A program made the position numbers and the translations under genes. 60,708 nt of DNA, from IMG/VR virus record IMGVR_UViG_3300042465_002807, positions 1 through 60,708 of that record; one strand, written 5' to 3'. Positions within the stretch are counted from its first letter, which is position 1. Every line of letters starts with the position of its first letter. Source of the DNA: a virus. Its lineage: Duplodnaviria; Caudoviricetes. Shown here in pieces: positions 3,459-55,857 of this stretch. The notes beneath the pieces are model-generated. The model did no database searches, was not told where the DNA came from, and saw nothing but the letters and a program-made list of their open reading frames with translations.

Positions 3459-3971
3459 ATGGATATTTCAAAGTTTAAGGGGTTACTAGGGGCTGGTGGT
3501 GCTAGACCAAACCAGTTTCGTGTTATTCTAACATTCCCAGGTTTCGTTGGTTCGGTTCCTGATACAGAATACTCACTGCTGGTTACTGGTGCAGCACTTC
3601 CTGCGTCAACAGTAAACCCAACAATCATTCAATACCGCGGTCGTGAAGTTAAGTTAGCTGGTGAGCGTATCTTTGATCCGTTCACAATCACAATCGTCAA
3701 CGATACTAACATGTCACTTCGTCGTCCATTCGAAGAGTGGATGAACGGCATGAATGACCTAGAAGCAAACACTGGCATTCTAAATCCAATTGATTATCAA
3801 GTGGATATGTCAGTAGAGCATCTAGATCGTAATGACGATCCGCTCATGACTTATGTTCTTTACAATGCTTTCCCGATTAACATGTCGGAAATTGGTCTAC
3901 AGTATGGTCAGAATGACGTAATTGAAGAGTTCACAGTAACCTTTAACTACTCACACTATCTGACTGCATAA
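3459..3971 (+). CDS. gp19: Tail tube protein (gp19)
   Basis: GGARPNQF, GREVKLAGERIFDP, IEEFTVTF; follows the sheath gene. Confidence 0.95.
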   Translation: MDISKFKGLLGAGGARPNQFRVILTFPGFVGSVPDTEYSLLVTGAALPASTVNPTIIQYRGREVKLAGERIFDPFTITIVNDTNMSLRRPFEEWMNGMNDLEANTGILNPIDYQVDMSVEHLDRNDDPLMTYVLYNAFPINMSEIGLQYGQNDVIEEFTVTFNYSHYLTA

Positions 3972-3994: not shown

Positions 3995-5569
3995 ATGCAG
4001 ATATTTGGTTATAAAATTGAAAAGTCAACGGCGCCACAGACTGAGAAATCGTTTGTGGCGCCAACGGACGATGGTGGCGTAGAAACTATCAGAGCCGGTG
4101 GCTACTATGGTACATACATCGATATCGATGGTACCGCAAATAATGAAATAGAATTAATTCGTAAGTATCGTGACATTGCTATGATGGCAGATATCGATAC
4201 TGCTATTGACGATATCGTAAACGATTCTATCGCAAACCTGGATGATGAAGCTCCAGTAAAGATTGACCTTGATGAAGTAGATTTGTCAAAGAACATTAAG
4301 AAGATGGTTCAAGAAGAATTTGAACTACTACTTAATATGTTGGACTTCAATCTAAGAGCGCAAGATTACTTTAGACATTGGTATATCGACGGAAGACTTT
4401 TCTTTCATAAAGTCGTTGACACTGCCAATCTAAAGAAGGGTCTAGTAGATATTCGCTATATCGACCCAAGAAAAATCAAGAAGATGAGAGAGATCCTAAA
4501 AGAAAAGGATACAAAAACTGGCGTAGAGTTCATTAAAGACATTAAAGAATACTTTGTCTATAATGATAAAGGTCTAGTTCCAAACAAGACGTTCACGCCA
4601 TCCGCATCACTCACTTCTACAGCCGGTGCCACCATGCGCATCGAAAAGGATTCTATCTGCTTTGTTCCTTCTGGCTTGAAGGACATGGACAGAAACATGC
4701 CGCTATCTTATTTACACAAGGCTATCCGCCCAGCAAATCAGTTGCGTATGATGGAAAATGCCGCAGTCATCTATCGTATCACTAGAGCGCCAGAGCGCCG
4801 TGTATTCTACGTTGACGTTGGTAATCTTCCAAAGATTAAAGCCGAACAGTATCTCAAGGGTATTATGAACCAGTATCGTAATAAAGTTGTTTACGATTCT
4901 CAGACTGGTGAAATCCGCGATGATAAAAAGTTTATGTCAATGCTTGAAGATTTCTGGTTGCCTCGCCGCGAAGGTGGTAGAGGAACACAGATTGAAACTC
5001 TACCGGGTGGTCAGGGTCTAGGCGAAATGGGAGACATTGAATACTTCCAGCGCAAACTATATCAAGCGTTGAACGTTCCTATGTCAAGACTTGAACAGCA
5101 AACTGGCCTTAACTTTGGTCGTGCCGCTGAAATCAATAGAGACGAATGGAAGTTTACGAAGTTTATTTCTAAACTGCGCCGTCGTTTCACACTTCTATTT
5201 GATGATCTACTAAAGACACAACTCATTCTCAAAGGTATCATTACAGAAGCCGACTGGGAAAAGATGAAGTATGATATCAAGTATACTTTTGCAACAGATG
5301 CTTTCTATACAGAATCCAAAGAGCAACAAATTCTACAATCTAGAGTTGAGATTCTCCAAGGTGTTGCACCGTTTATCGGCACAATGTATAGTAAAGAATA
5401 CGTTCAAGAAAATATTCTTAAATTATCGGACGATGAAATTGAAGAGATTAAGAAACAGAATGATGCAAGTCCTCCTGAAGTTTCGCCGCCCGACTATTCA
5501 CCACTAGAAGGCGAACCACCAGCGGCGGTTCAACAACAAAATCAAGGACAAGATGATGGACAACAGTAA
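3995..5569 (+). CDS. gp20: Portal protein (gp20)
   Basis: YRITRAPERRVFYVDVGNLP, EDFWLPRREGGRGT motifs. Confidence 0.97.
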   Translation: MQIFGYKIEKSTAPQTEKSFVAPTDDGGVETIRAGGYYGTYIDIDGTANNEIELIRKYRDIAMMADIDTAIDDIVNDSIANLDDEAPVKIDLDEVDLSKNIKKMVQEEFELLLNMLDFNLRAQDYFRHWYIDGRLFFHKVVDTANLKKGLVDIRYIDPRKIKKMREILKEKDTKTGVEFIKDIKEYFVYNDKGLVPNKTFTPSASLTSTAGATMRIEKDSICFVPSGLKDMDRNMPLSYLHKAIRPANQLRMMENAAVIYRITRAPERRVFYVDVGNLPKIKAEQYLKGIMNQYRNKVVYDSQTGEIRDDKKFMSMLEDFWLPRREGGRGTQIETLPGGQGLGEMGDIEYFQRKLYQALNVPMSRLEQQTGLNFGRAAEINRDEWKFTKFISKLRRRFTLLFDDLLKTQLILKGIITEADWEKMKYDIKYTFATDAFYTESKEQQILQSRVEILQGVAPFIGTMYSKEYVQENILKLSDDEIEEIKKQNDASPPEVSPPDYSPLEGEPPAAVQQQNQGQDDGQQ

Positions 5570-5813
5570 CATTAGTGACTTAATAAATAACATTGAAAAC
5601 GGTACCTTTGCAGATGCCGAACAAGTTTTCAATGATATTATGGACCTTAAAGCAGGCGAACAATTAGATCAAATGCGTCAAGATATGGCAGCCGGAATTT
5701 ATAACGATACGCCGGAAGATAATGAAGTCGAAGATTTCGATCACTACGAAATCACCGATGAAAATGACCACGGCGATACAGAAGAAATAGAGGACACCGA
5801 TGAAGACCTATAA
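5553..5813 (+). CDS. Prohead core protein (gp67-like), acidic
   Basis: Small, very acidic ORF directly after the portal gene, the T4 gp67 position. Confidence 0.6.
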   Translation: MMDNSNISDLINNIENGTFADAEQVFNDIMDLKAGEQLDQMRQDMAAGIYNDTPEDNEVEDFDHYEITDENDHGDTEEIEDTDEDL

Positions 5814-6654
5814 GCAACTTCAAGAGCGCATCAACATGGCGAAAGCCAAGATGGGTGATGTCATCAAGGACTTCCAGGACTCCGATGCTCCTCAATTCAA
5901 GGGTAAGAGCGACGAGAAGCGCCGTGAAATGGCAATTGCCGCTAAGATGTCTGCCGAAGAAGTTGAAGAACTTGATGAGATTTCTTCTGATATGGCTCAT
6001 CGCTATCTGAAAGGAAAGCACGAAAGAGATTACGATACTAGCGCAGATGGCAAATCTAGCAAGTTAAAGAAGCCACAGTCTTTTCGCAAGATGAACAACG
6101 ATGTAAAAAGTTCTATGCGGGCTCTTCGAACAATCGAGAAGGCTAAGAAAGCCAATGAAGAAATCGAACAAACTGACGAAGAACTAAAGGGCAATCAACA
6201 CAAGATTGATGCCAATAAGAATGGTAAGGTTGACGGACACGATTTCAAACTTCTTCGTTCGAAGAAGAAAGTTGAAGAAGAAGTCGAGGAACTTGATGAG
6301 CTATCAAAAGCGACACTTGCTTCTTATGTAGGTAAGGCGGCGAAAGATTTTTCAAAGCGTAAACCAAAAATGGGTTATGACGGCCAACTAAAAAAGATGC
6401 AGAATCGTAGCGTCGGTGTAGGTCGCGCCCTAGATAAGGTATACAAAGAAGAAGTTGAAGAACAGATTGAAGAATCTGATGGTCTAAAGCCATTCATTGT
6501 GGTTCACGCCAAGCATGGTAAGTTCGAAACTCATGCTGGTTCTACATATGAGGCTGCAAAGAATGCTGCCGCTCATTGGAAAACTAAAAAGGGAACTTCT
6601 GGCATGGATGTGCATCGTGCGGACATCACGCATTCGACGCAGCATGTCGGTTAA
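5800..6654 (+). CDS. Putative internal head polyprotein (basic modules separated by acidic protease-site linkers)
   Basis: N-terminus MKTYKQLQE resembles the T4 internal-protein capsid-targeting sequence; repeated EEVEELDE / EQIEE linkers; located in the prohead operon. Confidence 0.6.
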   Translation: MKTYKQLQERINMAKAKMGDVIKDFQDSDAPQFKGKSDEKRREMAIAAKMSAEEVEELDEISSDMAHRYLKGKHERDYDTSADGKSSKLKKPQSFRKMNNDVKSSMRALRTIEKAKKANEEIEQTDEELKGNQHKIDANKNGKVDGHDFKLLRSKKKVEEEVEELDELSKATLASYVGKAAKDFSKRKPKMGYDGQLKKMQNRSVGVGRALDKVYKEEVEEQIEESDGLKPFIVVHAKHGKFETHAGSTYEAAKNAAAHWKTKKGTSGMDVHRADITHSTQHVG

Positions 6655-6673: not shown

Positions 6674-7051
6674 ATGGCGACTAAAGCGGTACTAAAGTTA
6701 ACACAGGTTCACGGTGTTGTGAAGGTGCGCGGCACTGGGTCTGCCGAAATCGCCCTTGCCACCGACCTAAAGAAATCAACTGAAACACAAAGTTCGCCTA
6801 AAGCGAACATTCGCACCATTCATTGGGCATTGTCAGTAGGTTCTACAGCAACAATTACTAGAAATAGTCAAGTGTTATATTATCTTTCTGGAACAGGCAA
6901 GATGGAATTCATGGGCTGGTCTGACAATGAAGAGAATGGTTCTAACATTGTAGTTGACTTCTCTTCTGGTACAGGTGCAGTAGTTCTAGAACTTGCTAAG
7001 ATTTCTGGCTATGGTCCACAGCAACATCAAAATCAAGGAGACCTAGGCTAA
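6674..7051 (+). CDS. Hypothetical protein in the prohead operon
   Basis: ORF with RBS, translationally coupled to gp21. Confidence 0.6.
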   Translation: MATKAVLKLTQVHGVVKVRGTGSAEIALATDLKKSTETQSSPKANIRTIHWALSVGSTATITRNSQVLYYLSGTGKMEFMGWSDNEENGSNIVVDFSSGTGAVVLELAKISGYGPQQHQNQGDLG

Positions 7052-7707
7052 TGAAACTTATTACCGAAGTCAACGACCAAGTTCGTTATATTACAGAAGA
7101 GAAAGCTGGAAAGAAATCTTTATACATTGAGGGTGTCTTTCTGCAATCAAATCTAAAGAACCGCAATGGACGTATGTATCCGGCTGAAATCATGGAGAAA
7201 GAGATTTCTCGCTACATGAAAGAAGCGGTCGAGAACAACAGAGCATTCGGTGAACTAGGACACCCAGATGGACCTTCTATCAATCTGGATCGTGTATCGC
7301 ATATCGTAACAGAACTTCGCCGCGATGGCGATAACTGGATCGGTAAAGCGAAACTGACTGAAACACCAATGGGCAATATCGCTCGTGGTCTAATCGAGTC
7401 TGGTGGTCAACTTGGCGTTTCGTCAAGAGGCCTCGGTACTTTGAAGGAAAACAGAGACGGCGTCCAAGTTGTGCAAGATGACTTTCATCTAGCAACAGCG
7501 GCCGACATCGTAGCCGATCCTTCTGCACCAGATGCCTTTGTTCGTGGCATCATGGAAAATAAAGAATGGGTAGTTGTGAATGGTGTTTGGACCGAACAGC
7601 ATTGCGATATGTCCAAGAAGTATATTAAGAAAGCAAGTAAGAAACAACTTGAAGAAGCAAAGATTCAAGTCTTTGAACGTTTCTTGCGCCATCTTTCTTC
7701 AAAGTAA
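7051..7707 (+). CDS. gp21: Prohead core protease (gp21)
   Basis: NRNGRMYP, GELGHP, GVSSRGLG (catalytic Ser), DIVADPSAPDAFV. Confidence 0.97.
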   Translation: MKLITEVNDQVRYITEEKAGKKSLYIEGVFLQSNLKNRNGRMYPAEIMEKEISRYMKEAVENNRAFGELGHPDGPSINLDRVSHIVTELRRDGDNWIGKAKLTETPMGNIARGLIESGGQLGVSSRGLGTLKENRDGVQVVQDDFHLATAADIVADPSAPDAFVRGIMENKEWVVVNGVWTEQHCDMSKKYIKKASKKQLEEAKIQVFERFLRHLSSK

Positions 7708-7750: not shown

Positions 7751-8908
7751 ATGAGTGTAGAAAACAAAATCAGAGAGTTGCTAACTAAAAAGCAACTATC
7801 CGAGGAAGTTCTAGATGAGAAGGTTGCAGGTGATGCAACTAACCCTAAGCAGGGTTCTTCCGAAGACGCACCAGCTGCTGGCAAACTAGGCGCTGCCGGT
7901 GGTAAGGATACATCTATCCCAGCTAAGGTTGCAGGTGATCAAACTCAACCTCGCCAAGGCGATTCACAAGACGCTACTATTTCTAGTGAGCGTGATGAAG
8001 AAACTGATAATCCAGGTGCTAAGGAAGCTGCTCCAGTTTCTAGCAACCAGGCTACAGTTTCACAGGGCGGCGCAGGCGCAGCACCTAACTTCACAACTCA
8101 TAGCGATCCAACTTCGGTTGTAAATATGGCATCGTCAAAGGGTAACGTTCATCAAGAAGAAACAGAAGAAGAGGGCGAAATGATTGACGAAGATTTCACT
8201 GCCGATCTTGCTACTCTCTTTGATGGTAACGAAGACCTATCAGAAGAATTCCGTGGTAAAGCATCGTCGCTATTTGAAGCGATGGTAACTGCCCGTGTAG
8301 CCAATCAAGTTCAAAACATCGAGGAAGGCCTCATCTCAGAAGCCGCAGAATTGATGGAAGAGTTCAAGGCTGACTTGACCGAGAAGGTCGATTCTTATCT
8401 TAGCTATGTAATTGAAAAGTGGGTTGAAGACAACGCACTTGCTGTTGAAAATGGTCTGCGCACAGATATCGCGGAATCGTTCATCAACGGCATGAAGAAC
8501 CTGTTCGCAGAACATTACATTGATGTTCCCGAAGAGAAATATGATGTGCTTGGTGAAATGCAAGCCCAACTAGAAGAAGTATCTGCTAAGTTGGACGAGG
8601 CAATTGCTGCAAATGTAGAACTGCACAATAACAATGTAGACCTTATGAAGGAAGGCGTTTTCGCCGTCGTTGCTGAGGATCTTGCTAAGACCGATGCTGA
8701 AAAGTTCAAGTCGTTGGTTGCTGATGTAGAATTCGAGAACGCAGACATCTTTGAAGAAAAACTAAATGTCATCAAGGAAAATTATTTCCCAGCTTCTAAG
8801 TCAACCATTGTGGAAGACAAGCTAGAAGACGAAGGCGTTGAAGTTTTAGACGAATCGACAGTCAGTAAGTATGTCCAAGCACTGGATAAGATTGCTGCTC
8901 AAAAGTAA
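7751..8908 (+). CDS. gp22: Prohead scaffolding protein (gp22)
   Basis: LSEEF..KA..LFEA, YLSYVIEKW..DN..A, LFAEHYIDVPEEKYDV; lies between gp21 and gp23. Confidence 0.92.
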   Translation: MSVENKIRELLTKKQLSEEVLDEKVAGDATNPKQGSSEDAPAAGKLGAAGGKDTSIPAKVAGDQTQPRQGDSQDATISSERDEETDNPGAKEAAPVSSNQATVSQGGAGAAPNFTTHSDPTSVVNMASSKGNVHQEETEEEGEMIDEDFTADLATLFDGNEDLSEEFRGKASSLFEAMVTARVANQVQNIEEGLISEAAELMEEFKADLTEKVDSYLSYVIEKWVEDNALAVENGLRTDIAESFINGMKNLFAEHYIDVPEEKYDVLGEMQAQLEEVSAKLDEAIAANVELHNNNVDLMKEGVFAVVAEDLAKTDAEKFKSLVADVEFENADIFEEKLNVIKENYFPASKSTIVEDKLEDEGVEVLDESTVSKYVQALDKIAAQK

Positions 8909-10317: not shown

Positions 10318-10325
10318 TATAAATA
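10318..10325 (+). promoter_or_regulatory. Late promoter TATAAATA for gp3
   Basis: Exact consensus immediately after the terminator. Confidence 0.8.
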
Positions 10326-10341: not shown

Positions 10342-10878
10342 ATGTCAAGAAGAACATTAGATACCCCAAGCACCTTAAATTATCTGAAACCAAATGGTTT
10401 TCAGTTTAATATCGACACGCTTCCTAATGTCTCATTCTTTTGTCAGTCTGCTATGATTCCTGCACTGTCAATTGGTAATGCATATGTTGCTAACCCCTTA
10501 GTAGACTTCACTGTTCCTGGTACCAATCTTACATACGATGAATTGACCATAAAGTTTATTGTTCAAGAAAACTTTCAAAACTATATCGAACTTCACGATT
10601 GGTTAATTGGTCTAGGCTTTCCAGAAGAACGTGAACAATATAAACAATTTAAACAGGCTAGAGGCGGTACAGAAAAAGGATTTAGTAGCTCAGGTGACTA
10701 TTCCGATGGAACATTAGTTGTTCTAGATTCTGATCTAAATAAAACAATGGAAATCAAATTCATCGATTGTTATCCTACATCGTTGCAGGGTCTTGAATTT
10801 GACATTAGTGATGGTAATGCCCAGTATCTAACAGCACAAGTAACTTTTAGATATACAATGTATAAGTTTGTCCAATAA
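10342..10878 (+). CDS. gp3: Tail completion/terminator protein (gp3)
   Basis: NYLKPNGFQF, FFCQSA.IP, F.DCYPTSL; gp23-gp3-uvsY-uvsW synteny. Confidence 0.88.
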   Translation: MSRRTLDTPSTLNYLKPNGFQFNIDTLPNVSFFCQSAMIPALSIGNAYVANPLVDFTVPGTNLTYDELTIKFIVQENFQNYIELHDWLIGLGFPEEREQYKQFKQARGGTEKGFSSSGDYSDGTLVVLDSDLNKTMEIKFIDCYPTSLQGLEFDISDGNAQYLTAQVTFRYTMYKFVQ

Positions 10879-20307: not shown

Positions 20308-20342
20308 AAATAATGTGATTGATTGATTGATGAGGTTTTGTG

Positions 20343-22583
20343 ATGTCCCAGTTTGCTGAAAAGTCGATTCTCGCCAAGTTGTTGGCGACCGAAAACGTAA
20401 TGGTCGAACACCAGAAGGTGCCGACTGCCTATTTTGACCTGCAAAATCGCACGGTCGTTCTTCCCATCTTTAAAGAAATGTCCGCTGACCTCTATGACCT
20501 CTTGATTGGTCATGAAGTAGGTCACGCTCTCGAAACGCCTGCCGCCGGTTGGCATAGCAGTCTCTCTGAGAAGGGTGCTGGCTTCAAGTCGTTCCTTAAC
20601 ATCATTGAAGATGCCCGCATCGAACGCAAGATGAAGGACCGCTACCCCGGTATCCGTCGCTCGTTTTTCAACGGCTACAAAGAACTGTTCGACCAGAATT
20701 TCTTCGGCGTTGAAGGCATGGACCTCACCAAGTTGAAGTTCATTGACCGCATCAACCTTCACGCTAAGGTTGGTGCTTTCCTCAACATCAAGTTCTCTGC
20801 CGAAGAGCAGGCTTACGTTGACCGTCTCGACCAGCTCCAGACTTGGGATGATGTGGTTGCTCTGGCTACCGAACTCTACGAACGTGCCGAGACTTCGACC
20901 GAAGAACTTGACTTCGAAGAATTCATGAACGCCATGAGTAGCATGGCTGACAGCGACGGTGAGTTTGACCCCACCGCAGATTATGTCGAAGTTCCTGGCG
21001 CACCTGCGGCAGAGCAGGCTGAAAAGCAAGACAAGCCTCAGCCGTCTGCTGGCAAGTCCGAAGAAGAAACTTCCGACGACCAGCAAAGTGGTGGTCAGAC
21101 TGACAAGACCGAAGAAAAGTCGGACGAAGAAACCGACCAAGCATCTGACAAAGCCTCAGACGAATCTTCTGACAAAGATGCCGAGAAGACCGAAAGCGAT
21201 ATCGAACCATCTTCGTTCACTGACCAGAACTTCCGTGACAACGAGGACAGTCTTCTGGACGCCAGCGCCCGTGAGACTTTCTACTCCAAGTTGCCAGTTC
21301 TGAACCCTGCTGATTATGTTGTCGGTATCAAGACTGTTGAACAGATGCTTAAATTCACCGTTGGTGGCCGAGCAAAGATGAACGGCAAGACTGTCGAACA
21401 AGTCAAGATGGACCTCTACAAGGACTTTCTGGCTACGAACGGTAAGTACCTGTCTGCTATGGCTCAGGACTTCGAGCGTAAGAAGACCGCCCAGTCGCTT
21501 ATGCGCGCCCAGACTTCTAAGACTGGTCGTATCAATATGGACAAGGTATGGGCTTACAAGATTACGGAAGACCTGTTCCTTCAGAACACGGTAGTTCCTA
21601 ATGGTAAGAACCACGGCATGATTCTGTATCTTGATATGTCGGGCAGCATGTCGCCCAACATGGCTGGTACCATGGAGCAGTTGGTTCTGCTTGCTTCGTT
21701 CTGCCAAAAGGTTCGCATCCCGTTTGAAGTTTATGGCTTCATCACCAACTCATATGCGCCTGATGACTATAGTCGGTCAATTCGTAGCCGTAACGATTAC
21801 ACCGACAAAAAGAACCTCGTGATTAACGACCCTAACTTCCGTATGCTCCAGCTTGTTGCTACTGGTGTTTCTGGCGCTAAGTTCAAGACCCAGATGGCAA
21901 ATCTTCTAGCACTCGGTAAGTCTTATGACCGTCACTATGTTGACCTCTATCTTGACCATTCAGCCCAGACCGCGTTCGGTCTTGGTAGCACTCCTCTTGA
22001 GGAAGCTATCATCATCGGCCGCTACATTGCCGAAGAATTCAAGACCCGTAATCGGATTGAGGTTCTCTCGTCGGTGTTTCTGACAGACGGTCAGGGTGAT
22101 GCCAACTTTGGTGTTGCTGGTGGTCGCGACGGTGATAGCTTTCGTAAGAACCTTGCGATTGTTGACACAAAGACTCGTCGCACCTTTAAGGGTGAATATG
22201 ATGGTGGTAGCTATCGTTCTACGGCTTTCTGCCACGCTTTGCTCGACCTTTACAAGACCACTACTGGTTCGCGCCTGATTAACTTCTATCTAATGAACCC
22301 CTATGACCTCAAGTATATCATTGCTCGTTCTGGTCTTGATGGTGTGGTACAGGACGCTGTCCGTAAGTCATTCAAGAAAGAGGGTGCTGCCCTCCTCAAG
22401 AATGCGAACGGCTTTGATGACCAGTTCCTTATCAAGTCTGGTCGCAGCCTCCAGGTTCAGGAAGATACTCTTACTGTAGACTCGAACGATAAGAAGGAAC
22501 TTATGAAAGCCTTCAAATCGTTCCAGGACAAGAAAGCAATGGGTCGTGTAATCCTTTCTAAGATGGTCGAAGCGGTAGCCTAA
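20343..22583 (+). CDS. CobT-like protein: N-terminal HExxH metallopeptidase-like domain, acidic linker, C-terminal VWA domain
   Basis: HEVGHAL, NIIEDARIE, MIDAS DMSGSM, TPL, FLTDG. Confidence 0.82.
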   Translation: MSQFAEKSILAKLLATENVMVEHQKVPTAYFDLQNRTVVLPIFKEMSADLYDLLIGHEVGHALETPAAGWHSSLSEKGAGFKSFLNIIEDARIERKMKDRYPGIRRSFFNGYKELFDQNFFGVEGMDLTKLKFIDRINLHAKVGAFLNIKFSAEEQAYVDRLDQLQTWDDVVALATELYERAETSTEELDFEEFMNAMSSMADSDGEFDPTADYVEVPGAPAAEQAEKQDKPQPSAGKSEEETSDDQQSGGQTDKTEEKSDEETDQASDKASDESSDKDAEKTESDIEPSSFTDQNFRDNEDSLLDASARETFYSKLPVLNPADYVVGIKTVEQMLKFTVGGRAKMNGKTVEQVKMDLYKDFLATNGKYLSAMAQDFERKKTAQSLMRAQTSKTGRINMDKVWAYKITEDLFLQNTVVPNGKNHGMILYLDMSGSMSPNMAGTMEQLVLLASFCQKVRIPFEVYGFITNSYAPDDYSRSIRSRNDYTDKKNLVINDPNFRMLQLVATGVSGAKFKTQMANLLALGKSYDRHYVDLYLDHSAQTAFGLGSTPLEEAIIIGRYIAEEFKTRNRIEVLSSVFLTDGQGDANFGVAGGRDGDSFRKNLAIVDTKTRRTFKGEYDGGSYRSTAFCHALLDLYKTTTGSRLINFYLMNPYDLKYIIARSGLDGVVQDAVRKSFKKEGAALLKNANGFDDQFLIKSGRSLQVQEDTLTVDSNDKKELMKAFKSFQDKKAMGRVILSKMVEAVA

Positions 22584-35281: not shown

Positions 35282-35358
35282 TTGACATTTCCTCAGAATA
35301 TGCTACTATAAAATAGTAGACAGAAAAGAGAAAATGTGATTCGAAAATGTTATAAATA
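35282..35358 (+). promoter_or_regulatory. Copy of the P4 promoter/leader (P6) followed by late promoter TATAAATA (35351-35358)
   Basis: TTGACA-16-TACTAT; AAAATAGTAGACAGAA..GAGAAA..GTGATTCG shared with 22622-22653. Confidence 0.65.
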
Positions 35359-35386
35359 TAGGGTAATTTATAGAGATGGAAACCCT

Positions 35387-36523
35387 ATGTTATCTTTCAG
35401 TCAATTTCTTTCAGAGGAAAAGAAGCCAGCAGCTGGCATTCAACACATTGAACATCCGTCGGATAGAACATTCGATAATAAAGACGCTGCACACCACGCA
35501 TTGGAAACTCTGCGTGGTGTTGCGCATGGGAAAACGCCTATCACTCGCAAGATTGATGATAGAATGTCCTTTCATGCCGTGCGCACACCAGATGGTAAAG
35601 TCGGCGTAAAGTATAAGGGTCCAGGCGCCCACTATAATTTCTCTGCATCTGATATCGACAAGCAACATGGTCATAAACCATATCTTGTTGGTCCAATGAA
35701 GGCTTTACATAAGCACTTGGGTAAAGTTTTACCTAAGCATCCTGGTGAATATCAGGGTGGCTATATGAGTGAACCACATAACCGCGAAGTTAAAGATGGT
35801 CATATCGGCCACACACCTAACACCATTGAATATCATGCACCACTCCATAGCGAAGAAGGTCAAAAACTACACAAGTCTAAAGTAAGTATGACTATTCATA
35901 CTGAATTGAAGGGTGAACATAAGACACCTCATCCCATCACTAGCACCACGCACTTCCAAAGCCATCCAGACGTTCACATGGTACAGCATCTTGTGGCACC
36001 ACATGAACGTAAACTTTCTTCCGAAGTAAAGTCATCGGCTGAACACCATTTGAACTCGGCAGAAAAGTTGATGAAAGACCACTCGTATCATCATCTTTCA
36101 GGTCACGAAATACATCTCCGCTCTTACGTCAATAAGACTGTTACTAGTGGTGAAACACCATCTGTTGGTGGATATAAGAAGCACCTCGAAGCTGTTCATC
36201 AAAAGAGAATTGATGGCGTAAAGACTGCCGCCGCTAAAGAGCGTAAAGCGGAAGCAATGAAGGTTGATGTTTCTCATGTCACGAAAAACAAATCTGCTTT
36301 CGAAAAATCACTGGCTATTCACCATCATCTACAACAAGCAACTAATCATCTAGCACGTGGTCTTGACCATGCTGGTGGGGGTGGATTCCACACTCGTATC
36401 AGTGGTAAGGCATCCGGTGGCGAAGGTTATGTTGCCAATGGTCTGAAGGTTGTTGACCGCGAAGGCTTCTCAAAAGCTAACCGAGAGCGTAGTGCAATTC
36501 TAAGAGCAAGCAAGGGTAAATAA
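35387..36523 (+). CDS. His-rich DUF6267-like protein (possible degenerate ligase/nucleotidyltransferase fold) with a capsid-targeting-like N-terminus
   Basis: MLSFSQFLSEE start; HIEHP.D, TRKIDD, YQGG, TPNTIEY, GEGYV..LKVVDREGFS.AN; typical pairing with a cytidylyltransferase. Confidence 0.65.
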   Translation: MLSFSQFLSEEKKPAAGIQHIEHPSDRTFDNKDAAHHALETLRGVAHGKTPITRKIDDRMSFHAVRTPDGKVGVKYKGPGAHYNFSASDIDKQHGHKPYLVGPMKALHKHLGKVLPKHPGEYQGGYMSEPHNREVKDGHIGHTPNTIEYHAPLHSEEGQKLHKSKVSMTIHTELKGEHKTPHPITSTTHFQSHPDVHMVQHLVAPHERKLSSEVKSSAEHHLNSAEKLMKDHSYHHLSGHEIHLRSYVNKTVTSGETPSVGGYKKHLEAVHQKRIDGVKTAAAKERKAEAMKVDVSHVTKNKSAFEKSLAIHHHLQQATNHLARGLDHAGGGGFHTRISGKASGGEGYVANGLKVVDREGFSKANRERSAILRASKGK

Positions 36524-37131
36524 TGGCTGACGTTCATCATCATATCACACAAGGTAGAATGAACCCAATCACCGTTGGTCATGAAGCCGTTGTCAATCAG
36601 GTTCGTAAGACTGCTGGCTCACACGGTCACACCATCGTTCTTACTGGCACACATGATGCCAAGAAAAATCCTCTATCGCCAGAACAGAAGTTGAAGCATG
36701 CCAAGAGAGCATTTCCTGGTGCTAATGTTCGTCTGCTAGATAAAGAACATCCAACTCTATTGCACCAACTGTCAAGGTTGCACAAGCAGGGCGTCACACA
36801 TTTGCACTTGCACGTTGGTTCGGACCGAGCCCATGAGTTTCATGCGCTGACACATAAGTATAATGGTAAAGAAGGTCGTCACGGTCATTACGACTTCAAA
36901 AAGATTACTATTCATACAGTAGGTAAAGAGCGTTCGGATGCCGACACTGGTGTGGCAGGCGCTTCTGGTACGAAGATGCGCCAACATGCATCTGCTGGTA
37001 ATGAAAAAGAATTTCATAAGATGGCACCTAGTGCCATGTCTACTAAACATAAGCACGAACTCTACAAAGATGTTCGCCATGGTATGGGGCTCCATGAAGC
37101 AATGTCCTTCAAGAACTTTCTAGGAGTCTAA
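36523..37131 (+). CDS. His-rich cytidylyltransferase-like (HIGH-fold) nucleotidyltransferase
   Basis: GRMNPITVGH, KNPL, VGSDR, SGTKMR. Confidence 0.8.
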   Translation: MADVHHHITQGRMNPITVGHEAVVNQVRKTAGSHGHTIVLTGTHDAKKNPLSPEQKLKHAKRAFPGANVRLLDKEHPTLLHQLSRLHKQGVTHLHLHVGSDRAHEFHALTHKYNGKEGRHGHYDFKKITIHTVGKERSDADTGVAGASGTKMRQHASAGNEKEFHKMAPSAMSTKHKHELYKDVRHGMGLHEAMSFKNFLGV

Positions 37132-39218: not shown

Positions 39219-39226
39219 TATAAATA
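39219..39226 (+). promoter_or_regulatory. Late promoter TATAAATA
   Basis: Exact consensus before the 39260 gene. Confidence 0.8.
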
Positions 39227-39259: not shown

Positions 39260-41566
39260 ATGGCTAATATTATTGAAAAAGCAAAGGCTAGACTTGCTGA
39301 AAAGCGCGGGTCAGATTACACACTGTATCACAAATCGTATACAGATGCAATCAATCATGCACTATCACACCACCAAAAGTCTGGTCTTCATGTAAGTGAC
39401 GATGACCGATTCCAACATGTAAGTGTTGGTTCTAAGAAGCCGAGTGAAGGCAATACAACTTCGCTTCATATTCCTGCTACTCATTCTAATGGTAAGAAGC
39501 ATCTTCTTCACGTTCAAGTATTCAACAAGGGCGGCACACACCCATACGAACTCAATACCTATTCGAGTGGTATGGGTCGTCATGTCAAAGAAGATACCGA
39601 GCATGACAACTGCGGTACTCCAGAATGCTGCGGTCAATGTGATACTGCCGACATCGAAGAAGCTAATGCTCATTATCCACGCCCAGGCTTTCCTAAAGAG
39701 GGCGACTACGGCTATCATTCTAATGAAGGACTAAAGCCTCAAGAGAGCGATAAAGACCAAGACATGGACGTTGCATACAAGAAAGCTACCGAGAAAGAAG
39801 GTCGCAAGCCATTGAATGCGCAGACGACCGAAGTATCAAACAAGGTCGAAGAAGCATACGGCATGTGGAAGGTAGACTTCCCTAAACAACATGCGGGTAA
39901 AGCTGTTGCTGCTGGTTCAGTCCACGTTAAAGCACAGAACACCGCCCATGCACACAAGGTTGCTGCAAAGAGAGTCGGTGTTGACCACACAGTATTCAAG
40001 TCTAAGGTTACCAAGTCTTCAATTCTTCCAGAAGAAAATATCATGGAGCGCGGCGAAGATTCCAAGGGTCACTACCGTTCAACAGAAGATGGCGCTGGCC
40101 TTACTCGCAAGGGTGCTAAAGCCATGGGTATCAAGACCGCCGTTACTACTCCTCCTAGCAAGTTGGATCCAAAAGGTGAAGCTGCTGGTCGTCGTAGATC
40201 ATTCTGCGCCCGCATGGGTGGCATGAAAGGTCCAATGAAGGACGAGAAGGGTCGCCCAACTCGTAAAGCTATGTCACTTCGTCGCTGGAATTGCAACGAA
40301 GAATTGGGTGAGCAAATGGAGCCTGGTACTGGTTATACGCCGAAAACGCCACCAAAACGTCCGCCGATTGCTAAACCTACGATGCATCCTGCGGCTGAAA
40401 AACCAAGAACACCACAAAGCAGTGTTGGGTCTCTCTCGCGAATTCGCGGTGCTATGGCAAAACGTTTAAACAACGGCACTGTCAAAGAAGAACTCGGTAA
40501 AGAAAATGAATGGGGTCGCCCAGAACTCCGTAAGAAGTTTGCTGCTATGACTCCTGGACAAGAAGGTCTTGCCGCCGATGAGATTCCAACAATGAATCCA
40601 TTTTCTGGTGATGCTATCCACGAACAACAACTTGACGAAATCTCCGCCCTAGGTGCCAAGAAGCGTTCTGAATTTGCTGCCAAACTACAAAAGACACTTG
40701 CCGATCCGAAAAAAATCGCAAAGGCCAAGAAAGATATTGCAAAGAAAAAGGCAGTCCAGAAAGCAGAAGAACCTAAGCATCTTGTTATGCAACTTCGCAA
40801 AGCAACTTCTATCGGCTCCAAGGTTAAGTTCTATGATGGTGCAGAACACCACGTGGCACCTAATCATGTAGAGAAGTTCAATGACCGCTATCATTCATTG
40901 AAGTCTTCAATCGAAAAAGAAAGCCTAGTGAAGAGAGCACACAAGTCACATGCTGACTTCATGCGAGCCATCTCAGAAGAGACAATGGGTCAGACAATGG
41001 GACCTTGCACTGATGGCATTTCGCCAGCAAATTATCCTTCGCCATATCAGCTATCACCTCTACCTGGTTTAGATGATATGAACGCCGACGATGCTGCAAA
41101 TCAATGGACCGAGGGTGACTTGGCTGCAATTGAGGCCGATGTCACAAACGAAATCGAAACCTCTTCATGGCAAGACCTAAGTAAATACTATGACGCCGAA
41201 GAAGACGAAGATGAGGGTGAAGAAGGTCTTGATGAGGCTATCACACCACAGGGTCGTCTAAAGAAAAAGTTTGCTGCGATGCGCAACAAGACCCGCCGCA
41301 ATCTTGCGAAGAACATGGCGCTAAAGCGTATCGCTACACCAGATGTAATTAAGGGCCGCTCAATTCGTGCCGCTCGTAGAATGGTTTACAAGCGCATTCT
41401 TCGTAACCGCGACCCATCTTCTGTATCAGCCTCAGAAAAGGCCCGTATCGAAGCACAAGTTAAGCGTATGGCACCAATGGTATCAAGAATTTCTATTCGC
41501 CTGCAACAAAGCGAAAGAAAGCGTGACCAAGCCCGCGTGACAAACGCAAGAACAAAGAAGAAATAA
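39260..41566 (+). CDS. Large modular internal-protein-like polyprotein
   Basis: Basic/His-rich modules (including GRRRSFCARM...RRWNC) separated by acidic x-x-E linkers; late promoter. Confidence 0.6.
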   Translation: MANIIEKAKARLAEKRGSDYTLYHKSYTDAINHALSHHQKSGLHVSDDDRFQHVSVGSKKPSEGNTTSLHIPATHSNGKKHLLHVQVFNKGGTHPYELNTYSSGMGRHVKEDTEHDNCGTPECCGQCDTADIEEANAHYPRPGFPKEGDYGYHSNEGLKPQESDKDQDMDVAYKKATEKEGRKPLNAQTTEVSNKVEEAYGMWKVDFPKQHAGKAVAAGSVHVKAQNTAHAHKVAAKRVGVDHTVFKSKVTKSSILPEENIMERGEDSKGHYRSTEDGAGLTRKGAKAMGIKTAVTTPPSKLDPKGEAAGRRRSFCARMGGMKGPMKDEKGRPTRKAMSLRRWNCNEELGEQMEPGTGYTPKTPPKRPPIAKPTMHPAAEKPRTPQSSVGSLSRIRGAMAKRLNNGTVKEELGKENEWGRPELRKKFAAMTPGQEGLAADEIPTMNPFSGDAIHEQQLDEISALGAKKRSEFAAKLQKTLADPKKIAKAKKDIAKKKAVQKAEEPKHLVMQLRKATSIGSKVKFYDGAEHHVAPNHVEKFNDRYHSLKSSIEKESLVKRAHKSHADFMRAISEETMGQTMGPCTDGISPANYPSPYQLSPLPGLDDMNADDAANQWTEGDLAAIEADVTNEIETSSWQDLSKYYDAEEDEDEGEEGLDEAITPQGRLKKKFAAMRNKTRRNLAKNMALKRIATPDVIKGRSIRAARRMVYKRILRNRDPSSVSASEKARIEAQVKRMAPMVSRISIRLQQSERKRDQARVTNARTKKK

Positions 41567-41567
41567 T

Positions 41568-42005
41568 ATGGACGAATTGAATACTGCCCTTAAAATTGTG
41601 TTGGCTAATACATATGCAATGTATTTTAAGGCACATGGCTTTCACTGGAATGTAGAAGGCAAAGACTTCTCCCAGATGCATGATTTCTTTTCTGGTATCT
41701 ACGAAGAACTATTTGCTGCTATAGATACCATCGCAGAACAGATCAGGGCATTAGATGAATATGCTCCATATAATATGACCGAGTTGGCTTCTATTACTAC
41801 AATCAAAGAATCTAATATCTATGGTGTAGATGTTTCTGGTATGCTGGCTGACCTTAATGACGCTAATGCTTCTGTTATCGAAGCATTGAATTCGGCTCAT
41901 AAATTAGCAGACGCGGAAAATAATAGAGGTCTATTAAATCTAATCGAAGAACGTTTAGATGTTCATGCCAAGCACGGTTGGATGATCCGTGCATCCTCTA
42001 AGTGA
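41568..42005 (+). CDS. dps: Dps / mini-ferritin
   Basis: KAHGFHWNVEG, H.FF...YEE, DTIAEQIRAL, KHGWMI. Confidence 0.93.
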   Translation: MDELNTALKIVLANTYAMYFKAHGFHWNVEGKDFSQMHDFFSGIYEELFAAIDTIAEQIRALDEYAPYNMTELASITTIKESNIYGVDVSGMLADLNDANASVIEALNSAHKLADAENNRGLLNLIEERLDVHAKHGWMIRASSK

Positions 42006-42031
42006 TAAATATAGAGGATAAGGAGATACTA

Positions 42032-43633
42032 ATGTCACTCGAACAAACAATTAAAGACACTGTGATGGCAGAGTCCGTAGATTTGGATATGCGTTTGCAG
42101 CAACTAGTCCGCGCTGGACTAATGCCATCGAATACTATTCCTCTGTTGCGCAAAGCCATCACCAAGATACAAGGTGGTTATCCACTTCAAGGCGCCGAGC
42201 GCGATGTCATGGCAAACTTCTTAAATTCCATGATGTTCATCGTTCTGGGTGATGATGCTATCTTTAATAAGGCTAGAGTTGGCGCCAAATCTTATGCGAC
42301 CGAAGCTAAAGAAAAGCAAGAGTATGACTACGAAGGTGACATGGCAATGTCACAACTAAAGTCTATCATTGCTAACTCACAACGTATGCATGACTCGATG
42401 AGTGAAGATACCAATCTTCCTGAGTGGGTTCAATCAAAGATTACCTTAGCAGAAGATTATATCTCAACCGCCGCCAACTATCTTCAAAGTGAGATGAACG
42501 AAGAAAACGATATGTGGCGTGGCGGTACAAGGGCTAGGGGTTGGAGTAAAACTAAAGAAACTTCAAATCGCAAAGATGTTGGTCGATATACATCTTCCAG
42601 AAGAGATCATCCAAACGATCAAGCTGGTGGAAAACTTGCTGCCGCTGCGCTACGTAGAGAAAAAATGAAGGAAGAATCTGAAACAATTGATGAATTGTCA
42701 AAGAAAACTCTTGGTTCTTATATTGGCTCCGCTAGTGCAGATAAAAGTTTTGCGGCGCACGATGTCGGAGCTATCAATCAAATAGCACAAACCACAGGCA
42801 CAACAGCTAGAGATCGTGAAGAAAGAGAGCAATTAAATAAAAGGCATGCAAAACGTTCGAGTGGTATTGGTCGTGCTGTTAATAAACTGACTAAAGAAGA
42901 TGTCGAACTTGAAGAGAAGCGTGGTCTATGGGATAACATTCATGCCAAGCGCAAGAGAATTAAAGCTGGTTCGGGTGAGCGTATGCGTAAGCCGGGTTCA
43001 GAAGGTGCACCTAGTGCCGCAGACCTGAAGAACTCTCGCACTGAGGAAGTCGAACAGGTTACCGAAGCAACATATTTTGTTCACACGGCTAATAAGGCGC
43101 ATCATGTTAACAAAAAAATTCCCACTGGGAAAAAAGATGCGATGGGCCAGGCATTGATGACATCAAAGGTTGTTAAATCGTTTCCTTACGGAGACACTCA
43201 ATCAAAACAAACATCTCCTGACCAGCACAAGGCTGCACACGCTCATGCGAAAAAACTGAATGCTGGTATGAAAGAAGAAGTTGAAACAATTGATGAACTT
43301 TCAAAAGGTAAACTTCAATCTTATATGGATAAGGCAAAGACTAAACCAGGTGAAGTCGTTGCAAATGTTAATGACTCGGGTAGTATGAAAAAGTATGGAA
43401 ATCGTCTAAATGGCCGCATTCGTGCTGGTCGTAAACTTCTTGCAAAAGAATCTCGCCGCACAGAAGCACTTGCCGATATCGCAGCCGTTGCACAGATGAA
43501 CGAATCATATAAGACCACATTTGATGCTGCACTCACACAATATGGCATCAAGTCTCCCTCGGAACTTGATGAAGAAAAACGTAAAGAATTTTTTAACTTT
43601 GTAGATCAAGAATATAAAAAGGGAGACAATTAA
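42032..43633 (+). CDS. Modular internal-protein-like polyprotein
   Basis: Two ETIDELSK modules, plus ELEE / QVTE / MNE linkers; late-like GATAAATA at 42004, AAGGAG RBS. Confidence 0.6.
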   Translation: MSLEQTIKDTVMAESVDLDMRLQQLVRAGLMPSNTIPLLRKAITKIQGGYPLQGAERDVMANFLNSMMFIVLGDDAIFNKARVGAKSYATEAKEKQEYDYEGDMAMSQLKSIIANSQRMHDSMSEDTNLPEWVQSKITLAEDYISTAANYLQSEMNEENDMWRGGTRARGWSKTKETSNRKDVGRYTSSRRDHPNDQAGGKLAAAALRREKMKEESETIDELSKKTLGSYIGSASADKSFAAHDVGAINQIAQTTGTTARDREEREQLNKRHAKRSSGIGRAVNKLTKEDVELEEKRGLWDNIHAKRKRIKAGSGERMRKPGSEGAPSAADLKNSRTEEVEQVTEATYFVHTANKAHHVNKKIPTGKKDAMGQALMTSKVVKSFPYGDTQSKQTSPDQHKAAHAHAKKLNAGMKEEVETIDELSKGKLQSYMDKAKTKPGEVVANVNDSGSMKKYGNRLNGRIRAGRKLLAKESRRTEALADIAAVAQMNESYKTTFDAALTQYGIKSPSELDEEKRKEFFNFVDQEYKKGDN

Positions 43634-54091: not shown

Positions 54092-54186
54092 CGGAAATCT
54101 ATAAAATAATTCTGCCATGATTGATTCCAAGGTGTTGAAACGAATAAATAGTATGAAACAACAGATGTATGAGGAAAATCTAAATG
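54092..54186 (+). pseudogene. Diverged remnant of the 3' end of the PP-loop gene (homologous to 51761-51856)
   Basis: Hand alignment about 65/96 nt identical with one gap; encodes IDSKVLKRINSMKQQMYEE vs VDPKISNRIRDMKQKIYQE. Confidence 0.65.
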
Positions 54187-55857
54187 AATTTTAATGTTCA
54201 ATTTGAAACTGCGGATGCAAGAAACAGTTTTGCCAATAAAGTCGGGCTCGCAACTGAAGCCACAACTAGTATTGCAGTTAATGCAAATCTATTTACGTAT
54301 GCGATGCGGTATCCAGACGCACAGGTGTCATATGATGGCGCAACGATAAACCTTATTGTTGAAACTTCATATTTACCTAACTGTCCAGAGCATAGTGTGA
54401 TTTCCACCGAGGGTTCGTATTCGGTTGTCGAGACTACAGACCCTATTGGGTTTTATACTGCTTGTTCTGGTAATGTCGATTGCGCAGACGTTTCAATAAA
54501 ACTTCTGTCGCCGCTTTCGGGTACATCAATTACGACACCGAATGATTGGGCGAGACGCAGAACTTCTAATCGCTTTAGACCGTTCAAAGAATTTAAAACT
54601 TTTAATATTACCACCACAAATAAACCTGTTGTTTTTGTTGTCGATTCGGGGATAAGTTCTCACCAAGAACTCGAAGGTGTCGAAATAGTAAACTTTGGTA
54701 AACTATCTTATGATTCTTATACAGATAACCTAGGACACGGAACTGCGATTGCTTCTTGCATAGCGGGTGCAAATGTTGGTGTTACGCAAAATGTCACTCT
54801 TTATAACTATAAGGTAATTGATGATACAAAACCAACGATGCTTGAACTCGGAACTGTTCTAGACGAGATTAAAGAATTTAAACTAAACAATCCATCTTCC
54901 AATGTGACCATCAATGTCAGTTGGGCAACTCCATACAGTCCTTACTTGATTAACAAGTTTCTTGATGTGATTTCCGCTGGATGTGTTGTTGTCTGTGCTG
55001 CTGGTAATGGAGCAGATGATGTTTCCAATTATACTCCAGCCGGTATGCCAGAAGTTATCACGGTTGGTGCTATCGACGATGATGATATCGTTGCTGGATT
55101 TACTGCAACTTCAACAGCGGATGCATCTGTATCTTCTCCATATGGGCAATCTCTAGACATCTTTGCGCCAGGGGTTGATGTAGATGTTGCCTCCATAAAT
55201 GGTAACTATACAAGAGTGAGTGGTACTTCTTTCGCCGCACCATATGTTACAGCGGCCGCTGCACTAATTCAATCAATTTCAGTTACTCCGCCATCTCATG
55301 CACAAGTTTTAAATCTTATATCTGCAACTTCGTCGAAGGGTTCTGTGTTGTTCAACAGAGAAAACTTTAGCGCCAATCAAAATAAGATTGTTCAAATTAT
55401 CAATGGTGATATTACTGAGAGTAAACAATATTATCTTGGAACGTTAAGTGGCTCCACTGAAAGTCTTTTGGTACGCTCGGCCGTTTATGGTTTTAATTAT
55501 ATTAACAATTTAGATGTTCTTTTCCCAGAGACTACAGGCGTGGCATACACATTGGCGTGGGAAGATTCTGATCAGCAACAAAGATATGCGGAACATGTTG
55601 TATTTGACGGACAGACCGGAGAAACAACCATCAATATTCCAACATCCTTATTAGCAGAAGATGTTGATTTTGAAAGAGTCAATATTAGCCTTTCAAAAGT
55701 TACACAATATTCGGCGCAAACATGTAGTGGATTTTTCTACATTACTTCCAGTGAAGAACCACCAGTGTCTATAAGCGAAGATTTAAGTTTTGCTGACTAT
55801 GTTGATGTTAGCACTATGTCTTCTGGATTGATACTGGCCCGTACCGCTAAACCATAA
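54184..55857 (+). CDS. Subtilisin-like S8 serine protease
   Basis: VVDSGI (Asp), GHGTAIA (His), AAGN, SGTSFAAP (Ser). Confidence 0.92.
   Translation: MNFNVQFETADARNSFANKVGLATEATTSIAVNANLFTYAMRYPDAQVSYDGATINLIVETSYLPNCPEHSVISTEGSYSVVETTDPIGFYTACSGNVDCADVSIKLLSPLSGTSITTPNDWARRRTSNRFRPFKEFKTFNITTTNKPVVFVVDSGISSHQELEGVEIVNFGKLSYDSYTDNLGHGTAIASCIAGANVGVTQNVTLYNYKVIDDTKPTMLELGTVLDEIKEFKLNNPSSNVTINVSWATPYSPYLINKFLDVISAGCVVVCAAGNGADDVSNYTPAGMPEVITVGAIDDDDIVAGFTATSTADASVSSPYGQSLDIFAPGVDVDVASINGNYTRVSGTSFAAPYVTAAAALIQSISVTPPSHAQVLNLISATSSKGSVLFNRENFSANQNKIVQIINGDITESKQYYLGTLSGSTESLLVRSAVYGFNYINNLDVLFPETTGVAYTLAWEDSDQQQRYAEHVVFDGQTGETTINIPTSLLAEDVDFERVNISLSKVTQYSAQTCSGFFYITSSEEPPVSISEDLSFADYVDVSTMSSGLILARTAKP

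Follow-up and report, generated by a model that had tools for sequence, protein, structure and literature searches.

Polyprotein-type carriers of exchangeable modules as candidate precursors of T4-type internal head proteins in an uncultured T4-like myovirus

The internal proteins of phage T4 are the textbook example of anti-defence proteins shipped in the capsid, but there are only three of them, each from one gene. T-even internal proteins are diverse, have only a capsid-targeting leader in common, and are cut by gp21 and injected (PMC3012670, PMC9026906); Ip1, Ip2 and Ip3 each inhibit a different GmrSD nuclease (PMC12373910), and the internal-protein loci are hypervariable, with more than 30 variants (PMC2839356). 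These proteins are the closest known system to three genes, here designated A, B and C, of a linear 60.7-kb virus record from IMG/VR (IMGVR_UViG_3300042465_002807, the whole of which is referred to as the window; estimated completeness 34%), in which short modules follow one another in one reading frame and are separated by acidic linkers (Table 1). We propose, at a probability of roughly 0.6, that A, B and C are polyprotein precursors of T4-type internal head proteins, and that their probable role is to furnish the capsid with small proteins whose assortment can change.

T4 IPI, IPII, IPIII and Alt share with the present genes a gp21-family protease, an L/I-x-E site and cargo that varies strongly from one related phage to another and has only the leader in common, and the leader type MKTY... 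of the T4 internal proteins also stands on gene A, single-module genes beginning MKSFKEFLEE. While T4 has one cargo per gene with its own leader, up to eight unrelated cargos lie here in one reading frame, internal linkers repeat the cut site, and neither B nor C has a T4-type leader. Inner-body and ejection proteins of the giant phages phiKZ, 201phi2-1 and SPN3US are likewise cut after Glu at a short motif by a gp21-related protease and have propeptides with several sites (PMC9026906), but each is one large protein that loses its propeptides and has no chain of exchangeable mini-modules. The polyvalent proteins described by Iyer et al. (2017; PMC5512222) are similarly mosaic, with 2-15 domains, a late-gene context and a predicted host entry together with the DNA, yet they possess enzymatic and anti-restriction domains, and any processing of them is due to their own MPTase domains; T4 Alt-type ARTs do not occur in genuine polyvalent proteins according to this source, which makes no mention of cyanophages. 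None of the polyvalent-type domains (MuF, MPTase, ART, ParB-like and others) was found in A or B by Pfam at E<=0.1, and only DUF6321 in gene C. T4 gp22, gp67 and gp68 resemble gene A, which holds that operon position, in multiple gp21-type sites and acidic stretches, but gene A, unlike them, has no family match and its content is hypervariable.

What differs here is the polyprotein form, with several unrelated cargos in one frame and the cut site recurring as internal joint. The literature searches, with supplementary files outside their scope, found no title or abstract that describes protease-linker chains of such modules, no paper containing 'DUF6321' and no proteome for a phage with these carrier genes. 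An earlier reading of the DNA without database searches, hereafter the sequence-only reading, had regarded the locus as a candidate for an undescribed system; in kind it is not entirely undescribed, as the locus extends the T4 scheme, already known, of internal proteins, capsid targeting and gp21.

Gene B, in an open reading frame (ORF) spanning 42002-43633 with a likely start at ATG 42032 downstream of AAGGAG, is a chain of six modules between an N-terminal and a C-terminal anchor. A module termed LSK, recognized from the letters of the sequence twice in gene B and once in gene A, is indeed present at amino acids (aa) 222-295 after ESETIDE (K1), at aa 423-491 after EEVETIDE (K2), and at aa 168-225 of gene A after EEVEELDE. 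BLASTP aligns residues 219-288 of B with 165-216 of A (24/70 identities, E 2e-6) and residues 420-465 of B with 165-210 of A (18/46 identities, E 0.001), while K1 and K2 align over their first 22 residues (15/22 identities, E 7e-7); the module ends MNE, LEE and VTE, as named by the sequence-only reading, are those of module W (...SEMNE), K1 (...VELEE) and module G (...EQVTE). A profile built from 19 LSK modules and searched against 1.84 billion protein cluster representatives (50% identity) matched 2976 of them at E<=1e-3, of which 768 reached E<=1e-10, and by this count the LSK module is a real family and not a chance resemblance; the best 150 representatives contain 2-10 matched stretches each. 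AlphaFold2 (AF2) models the LSK module K1 as a two-helix hairpin (predicted local distance difference test, pLDDT, 78) and the N-anchor as a four-helix bundle (pLDDT 80), the latter without a match in the PDB at E<=0.001 by Foldseek (best E 2.7). The five modules R to K2 carry a net charge of +2 to +8, C-terminal acidic linker included. Pfam shows no enzyme domain in gene B at E<=0.1, and for module G the ESM Atlas offers unnamed viral clusters only (0.85-0.86), which are leads and no more. The public model of the whole gene B protein has a predicted template modelling score (pTM) of 0.19 and no fixed overall fold, which agrees with a beads-on-a-string arrangement.

T4 gp21 cuts C-terminal to the Glu of L/I-x-E (PMC9026906). 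Comparable junctions were assembled from IMG/VR scans with B, A and C (79 loci each), which returned 351 complete matching ORFs, 225 of them unique. For each of eight unrelated module types, the decapeptide that precedes the module start was taken, the module-start patterns excluding upstream residues. With up to five junctions of module Y counted twice, [LIVM]-x-E stands directly before the module in 123 of 142 distinct junctions and within two residues in 138, and the consensus reads K-E-E-V-E-Q-[L/I]-D-E. An independent set, 149 representative proteins from the LSK-profile search, has 421 distinct LSK starts; [LIVM]-x-E precedes 418 of them, whereas the background frequency of this motif is 2.3% per position. 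In the 73 plus-strand genes of the window a strict linker pattern has six occurrences: A contains two, B three, and the remaining one is in the scaffold protein, which is a gp21 substrate in T4. Four of the seven boundaries of gene B are canonical, with YATE, EMNE and QMNE as variants, and the gp21-family prohead protease on which the T4 internal-protein system depends is encoded in the window.

A leader of the T4 type is found on gene A and on single-module genes. T4 IPII and IPIII both begin MKTYQEFIAE, and in IPIII the N-terminal decapeptide is enough for packaging; positions 4 and 7 are important for targeting, and positions 8 and 10 for processing (PMC9026906). MKTYKQLQE of gene A has its first four residues in common with IPII and IPIII, so that Y4 is kept, has Leu as residue 7 and ends its L-x-E one residue earlier. 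In related loci, the DUF6321 module exists as a 93-aa single gene starting MKSFKEFLEE and module G as a 90-aa gene starting MLTFKEYIEE, with F4, F/Y7, L/I8 and E10. The strongest argument is that one cargo can be found behind either a T4-like leader or an internal linker, which suggests that a linker takes the part that the cleavage site plays in the leader. As putative head-protease sites the linkers are well supported on sequence grounds.

The same architecture might be read as that of uncut multi-domain proteins, beads on a string with acidic linkers as spacers or helix caps, that act as a unit, for example in DNA binding or condensing. Most modules are basic (net +2 to +8), the whole-protein model has the low pTM given above, and neither the fold search with the N-anchor nor Pfam suggests a function, all of which would suit such proteins. 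Glu as P1 in 126 of 142 junctions and L, I or V as P3 in 125 of 142 is the rule of the T4 protease and not that of a generic acidic spacer, though, and together with the single-gene module behind a T4-like cleavable leader this makes an uncut chain quite unlikely.

In the proposed precursor route, A, B and C would be made late. The box TATAAATA, which we take to be the T4 late-promoter consensus, precedes gene C by 34 nucleotides (nt) and stands also upstream of the sheath, scaffold and capsid genes; it has nine matches, 9/9 on the plus strand, versus 2.62 expected, and at least nine were reached in 0 of 100 shuffles. Gene A would enter the prohead core via its N-terminal leader, which resembles the T4 capsid-targeting sequence, and B and C by another route, perhaps via their conserved end domains. 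In the prohead, the gp21-family serine protease would cut after the Glu of each [L/I/V]-x-E linker and set free mini-proteins of 40-80 residues, mostly basic and helical, that would remain associated with the DNA and probably accompany it into the host; cleavage, packaging, injection and an action of the modules are what we infer from the sequences, and an anti-defence or host-takeover role is pure conjecture. Cytoplasmic polyproteins that are processed by another protease and never packaged would equally lack a T4-type leader, as B and C do, and the window encodes peptidase-like genes apart from the prohead protease. Against such polyproteins, which we regard as very improbable, the motif fits the specificity of an S77 protease and is common to the scaffold protein and to gene A of the head operon; a late-promoter box is present, and the direct downstream neighbour of gene B has structural-protein matches.

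Related phages reshuffle the module set, in our interpretation by recombination with the surviving joints in the linkers, and the cassette-like variation itself is established by comparison. As had been predicted by the sequence-only reading, content and order of modules differ among orthologues: the 27 unique proteins with both B anchors represent 25 module architectures, and the colinear, full-length orthologues that were named as the contrary outcome are not among them. These carriers comprise 256-676 aa with one to eight modules between the anchors, architectures having been called by signature patterns (regular expressions), by which module Y was flagged also as K and the C-anchor of L019 was missed. 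Single-linkage clustering of the segments after cuts at acidic [LIVM]xE was discarded as an alternative, with 716 of 933 segments in one cluster and linker-trimmed clusters still mixed. The B carrier lies between the Dps-like gene and a gene for a 531-aa structural protein in 37 of the 38 loci that have both, the gap between the two being 878-2254 nt, and the slot of gene A, from the end of the gp67-like or portal gene to the protease start, takes 34 distinct lengths between 443 and 3433 nt across 62 loci. An MKT[YF] leader (MKTYKQLQE, MKTFKQLLE, MKTYKELVE) opens 19 of the 95 unique ORFs in this slot, and these 19 encode 152-384 aa.

Modules move between the carriers A, B and C. LSK is found in 15/38 A-type and 17/29 B-type unique proteins, module G in 11 B-type and 3/15 C-type, module Y in four A-type and two B-type, a Cys module in two B-type and four C-type, and module T in nine A-type and one B-type; module G and the Cys module are acquisitions of gene C orthologues. 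Module R, of the 27 carriers, occurs only in that of the window and is replaced by a module P in the closest relatives, and turnover is seen between phages with ~90% identical flanking DNA. Versus three close relatives the ratio of nonsynonymous to synonymous substitution rates (dN/dS) of the modules is 0-0.18 (18 comparisons), and 0.07-0.28 versus the more distant L015, where K2 is not orthologous; module H shows 0.035-0.11, the N-anchor 0.04-0.11 and the C-anchor 0.02-0.03 versus close relatives. Values so far below 1 indicate purifying selection and therefore argue that the modules are maintained proteins and not filler. An interchangeable Gly/Ala-rich hydrophobic module of 45-65 residues (YAALAGVAGRMIASKLAKNAGAGVATR...), absent from the window, is present in the B orthologues L015, L016, L023, L027 and L033; an activity on membranes is conceivable and would be apt for a protein leaving the capsid with the DNA.

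Exchange and selection bear also on the possibility that A, B and C are assembly core or scaffold proteins in the manner of T4 gp22, gp67 and gp68, cut for clearance from the head and with modules that have no later role. Gene A is placed where T4 has gp67/gp68, between the portal and protease genes, the scaffold protein shares the linker motif with A and B, and the positional orthologues listed retain an EF-hand-like core of gene A; in T4, cleavage of the core proteins yields several fragments which mostly exit the head (PMC9026906). On the other hand, module content that varies at ~90% identical flanking DNA fits a size-determining scaffold poorly, every module is under purifying selection, the modules are independent genes in unrelated podoviruses, and PHROGs and Pfam show no gp68-like family in A or B. 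Gene A and a 125-aa gene have no match in PHROGs and in Pfam only families below the curated cut-offs, and neither could be assigned to the gp67 or gp68 families. A scaffold role is considered unlikely. The core in question, LKG(N/D)QHKIDANKNGKVDGHDFKLLR, has an EF-hand- or dockerin-like calcium-loop pattern that is kept in the listed leader-bearing positional orthologues, with weak Pfam matches below the cut-off (EF-hand_7, E 0.055; Dockerin_1, E 0.01); it may be the true assembly-related core of gene A.

The sequence-only reading had further regarded the GAA-rich linkers as protease sites and recombination joints in one, and predicted breakpoints within them. Comparing the B region with 12 related loci by blastn, 41 of 48 internal ends of high-scoring segment pairs (HSPs) fall into windows of -10 to +3.5 codons at the seven B junctions, which make up 17.7% of the protein and would thus receive 17.7% by expectation; related loci share breakpoints, so that the 48 ends are not independent, and after collapsing them 11 of 14 distinct breakpoints remain in junction windows. 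Protein-level HSP ends were too noisy as breakpoints and were replaced by these DNA-level ends: within at most five residues of a strict linker, by a definition that missed YATE and EMNEE, lay 18% versus 12% in the null at 45% identity, and 26% versus 11% at 80% identity. The similarity of linker DNA, as noticed between the strings near 43274 and 6277, is likewise real (26/33 identical), and the last 24 nt of eight window linkers have a mean identity of 68%. In these eight linkers, the two codons are identical in 84 of 121 same-amino-acid codon pairs, while codon usage would predict 70.8, a small excess among pairs that are not independent. The likeness is mostly a by-product of the peptide motif, since a Glu/Asp-rich peptide is encoded by two-fold degenerate codons, and with codon use near expectation it was dropped as independent evidence of recombination joints. 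Of the dual role of the linkers, the clustering of breakpoints and the L/I-x-E rule alongside a gp21-family protease hold up, while the DNA likeness lends it little. Two models fit the breakpoints: exchange may run through the linkers themselves, or it may happen at any place, with only those products surviving that stay in frame and preserve modules.

Modules behave as independent units in cultured phages, too. A tblastn search of gene B against 50,697 phage records matches 87 of them, parts separately. K1 matches a 682-aa protein of the T4-like Caulobacter phage Cr30 with four LSK modules separated by ESENLNE, ESEEMINE, EELDE and EALDE, and Cr30 may serve as a cultured model for such genes. 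Module G matches small ORFs of T7-like cyanophages, pelagiphages and roseophages, the N-terminal module of gene A matches cyanomyovirus proteins, one of them fused to DUF6321, and module W forms the C-terminus of a 179-aa protein of cyanomyovirus S-WAM2 that begins MKTFKQLREE. For gene C, whose aa 278-343 pass Pfam DUF6321 (47.5 bits vs cut-off 28.5), all 40 listed matches, the best 40 of 59, fall within the DUF6321 module. The LSK protein of Cr30 (L002, 1474-3522) has a short leader, MRSKILAE, and lies downstream of a cytidylyltransferase gene, as such genes do in the window. In the T7-like cyanopodovirus S-RIP2 (L243, 1049-1864, minus strand), G-like and DUF6321 modules belong to neighbouring small genes flanked by hli and psbA, with the G-like stretch in in-frame fusion to a signal-peptide-like segment and a beta-rich C-terminus that ends in Phe and is outer-membrane-protein-like.

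Several observations weigh against the interpretation of A, B and C as precursors of internal head proteins. Gene B starts MSLEQTIKDTVMAE and has no MKT[YF] leader of the T4 type, nor has gene C a T4-type N-terminal leader; [IVM]-[AS]-E is common at residues 12-14 of B orthologues, but inside the predicted helix 1. The boundaries YATE|A, EMNE|E and K|ESRR are non-canonical, and each cut peptide would retain an acidic tail of eight residues. Three of the 14 distinct breakpoints are off the linkers and inside modules, at about aa 278, 442 and 471; at aa 471 begins the conserved ESRR... stretch, before which there is no linker. The B orthologue of L018 (4001-4936) is devoid of module H and the first ~19 residues of K2, owing to a deletion that begins at a linker, where G ends, and stops midway through K2, and therefore not every rearrangement uses linkers. 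In the collection of cultured phages, 0 of the 87 records for B and 0 of the 59 for C cover 80% of the query, so that the anchors of B and C are absent there and no virion proteome covers them. Modules occur in T7-like podoviruses too, which are not known to have a gp21-type protease; if there is none, module function would be independent of the head-protease route.

If the precursor interpretation is true, abundant uncultured T4-like phages have multiplied the principle of the T4 internal proteins, one leader or anchor loading a whole chain of cargo, and one rule, [L/I]-x-E, parses the chain both in the head and in silico. Module turnover at ~90% identical flanks is the signature of an arms-race locus, and the linker rule offers rule-based mining of candidate injected effectors as well as a natural design for packing several proteins into T4-type capsids. 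More tentatively, and with the odds rather against it, the linker could be a universal joint, at once protease site and place where recombinants survive, of an integron-like cassette library of capsid-delivered, host-directed effector mini-proteins in T4-like phages of oceans and lakes. Each module would then be an independent effector for anti-defence, takeover or membrane passage, delivered before phage gene expression, and LSK-type polyproteins, which number in the thousands, would amount to an extensive effector catalogue that is simple to parse and as yet unexplored.

Table 1. Coordinates of the carrier genes, their parts and associated features in the window.
Feature	Position	Strand	Basis or remark
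Gene A, 284-aa modular protein in head-assembly operon	5800..6654	+	between gp67-like gene and protease
Gene A, leader MKTYKQLQE	5800-5826	+	
Gene A, module Q	5827-5979	+	
Gene A, module Y	5980-6180	+	
Gene A, EF-hand-like core, aa 128-167	6181-6300	+	
Gene A, LSK module	6301-6474	+	
Gene A, module T	6475-6651	+	
Gene B, 533-aa modular protein, N-anchor + 6 modules + C-anchor	42032..43633	+	ORF, ribosome-binding site, module map, position
Gene B, N-anchor, aa 1-91, four-helix domain ending ...YATE	42032..42304	+	kept in 27/27 carriers
Gene B, module W, aa 92-157, acidic, contains PEWVQSKITLAEDY, ends SEMNE	42305..42502	+	separate matches in cyanomyoviruses S-WAM2, S-H9-1
Gene B, module R, aa 158-221, basic, ends with linker ESETIDE	42503..42694	+	
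Gene B, module K1, LSK helical hairpin, aa 222-295, ends with linker KEDVELEE	42695..42916	+	
Gene B, module G, KRGLWDNIHAKRKR..., aa 296-345, ends with linker EEVEQVTE	42917..43066	+	phrog_16028
Gene B, module H, ATYFVHTA..., His-rich, aa 346-422, ends with linker KEEVETIDE	43067..43297	+	
Gene B, module K2, second LSK copy (aa 423-472) and conserved ESRR...QMNE stretch, together aa 423-491	43298..43504	+	stretch runs into C-anchor
Gene B, C-anchor, aa 492-533, SYKTTF...KKGDN	43505..43630	+	phrog_28651; kept in carriers
Gene C, 768-aa modular protein	39260..41566	+	
Gene C, DUF6321 (PF19846) module, ~aa 264-351, after ...EENIME	40049-40312	+	Pfam
T4-type late-promoter-like box TATAAATA	39219..39226	+	34 nt upstream of gene C
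gp21-family prohead protease, presumed cutter	7051..7707	+	Pfam Peptidase_S77, E 9e-41, 139.9 bits vs cut-off 27; phrog_207, E 5.5e-80
T4-type scaffold protein with strong linker motif SEEVLDE	7751..8908	+	Pfam T4_CASP; motif scan
86-aa gp67-like gene	5553-5813		phrog_1064 'prohead', E 7.6e-5
Dps/ferritin-like gene between genes C and B, tightly packed late gene string	41568..42005	+	Pfam Ferritin, E 7e-22
Peptidase-like genes other than the prohead protease	20340-22583; 54184-55857		PHROGs

Judged from its genes, the source is an uncultured aquatic T4-like myovirus of whose genome the window is a part, since a T4-type gene set is combined with a major capsid protein that has 66.7% identity to that of Methylophilales phage Melnitz and 64% to those of Pelagibacter myophages. 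By PHROGs and Pfam this set comprises the large terminase, tail sheath, tail tube, Portal_T4, a gp67-like prohead protein, a prohead protease of the gp21 family (Peptidase_S77), a scaffold protein (T4_CASP) and a major capsid protein of T4 type, and also UvsY, UvsW, a gp55-like sigma factor, gp46/47, DNA polymerase, UvsX and a helicase; nearly all long ORFs of the window are on the plus strand. Gene C, the Dps-like gene, gene B and the next gene, which has structural-protein matches, abut or overlap. The Dps/ferritin-like gene has neither leader nor linker motif and is kept as upstream neighbour of gene B in related loci.

Upstream of gene C, at 35.3-39.2 kb, lies a neighbourhood with cytidylyltransferase/NMNAT-like genes (PHROGs), and cytidylyltransferase/NMNAT-like proteins together with adjoining proteins of no assigned function have been detected in virion proteomes of T4-like cyanophages (PMC10665884), a context that speaks for the precursor interpretation. 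The ORF called there from GTG 35336 (35336-37131) has a TATAAATA box inside, at 35351, and its likely start is Met18 (35387), from which it would encode a His-rich DUF6267 protein (Pfam E 1e-35) with a T4-leader-like, capsid-targeting-type N-terminus, MLSFSQFLSEE...; a cytidylyltransferase-like gene (36523-37131) comes after it. Besides the tube gene at 3459-3971 there is a second tail-tube-like gene (10342-10878; phrog_45, E 1e-37), located after the capsid gene and preceded by a separate TATAAATA box at 10318.

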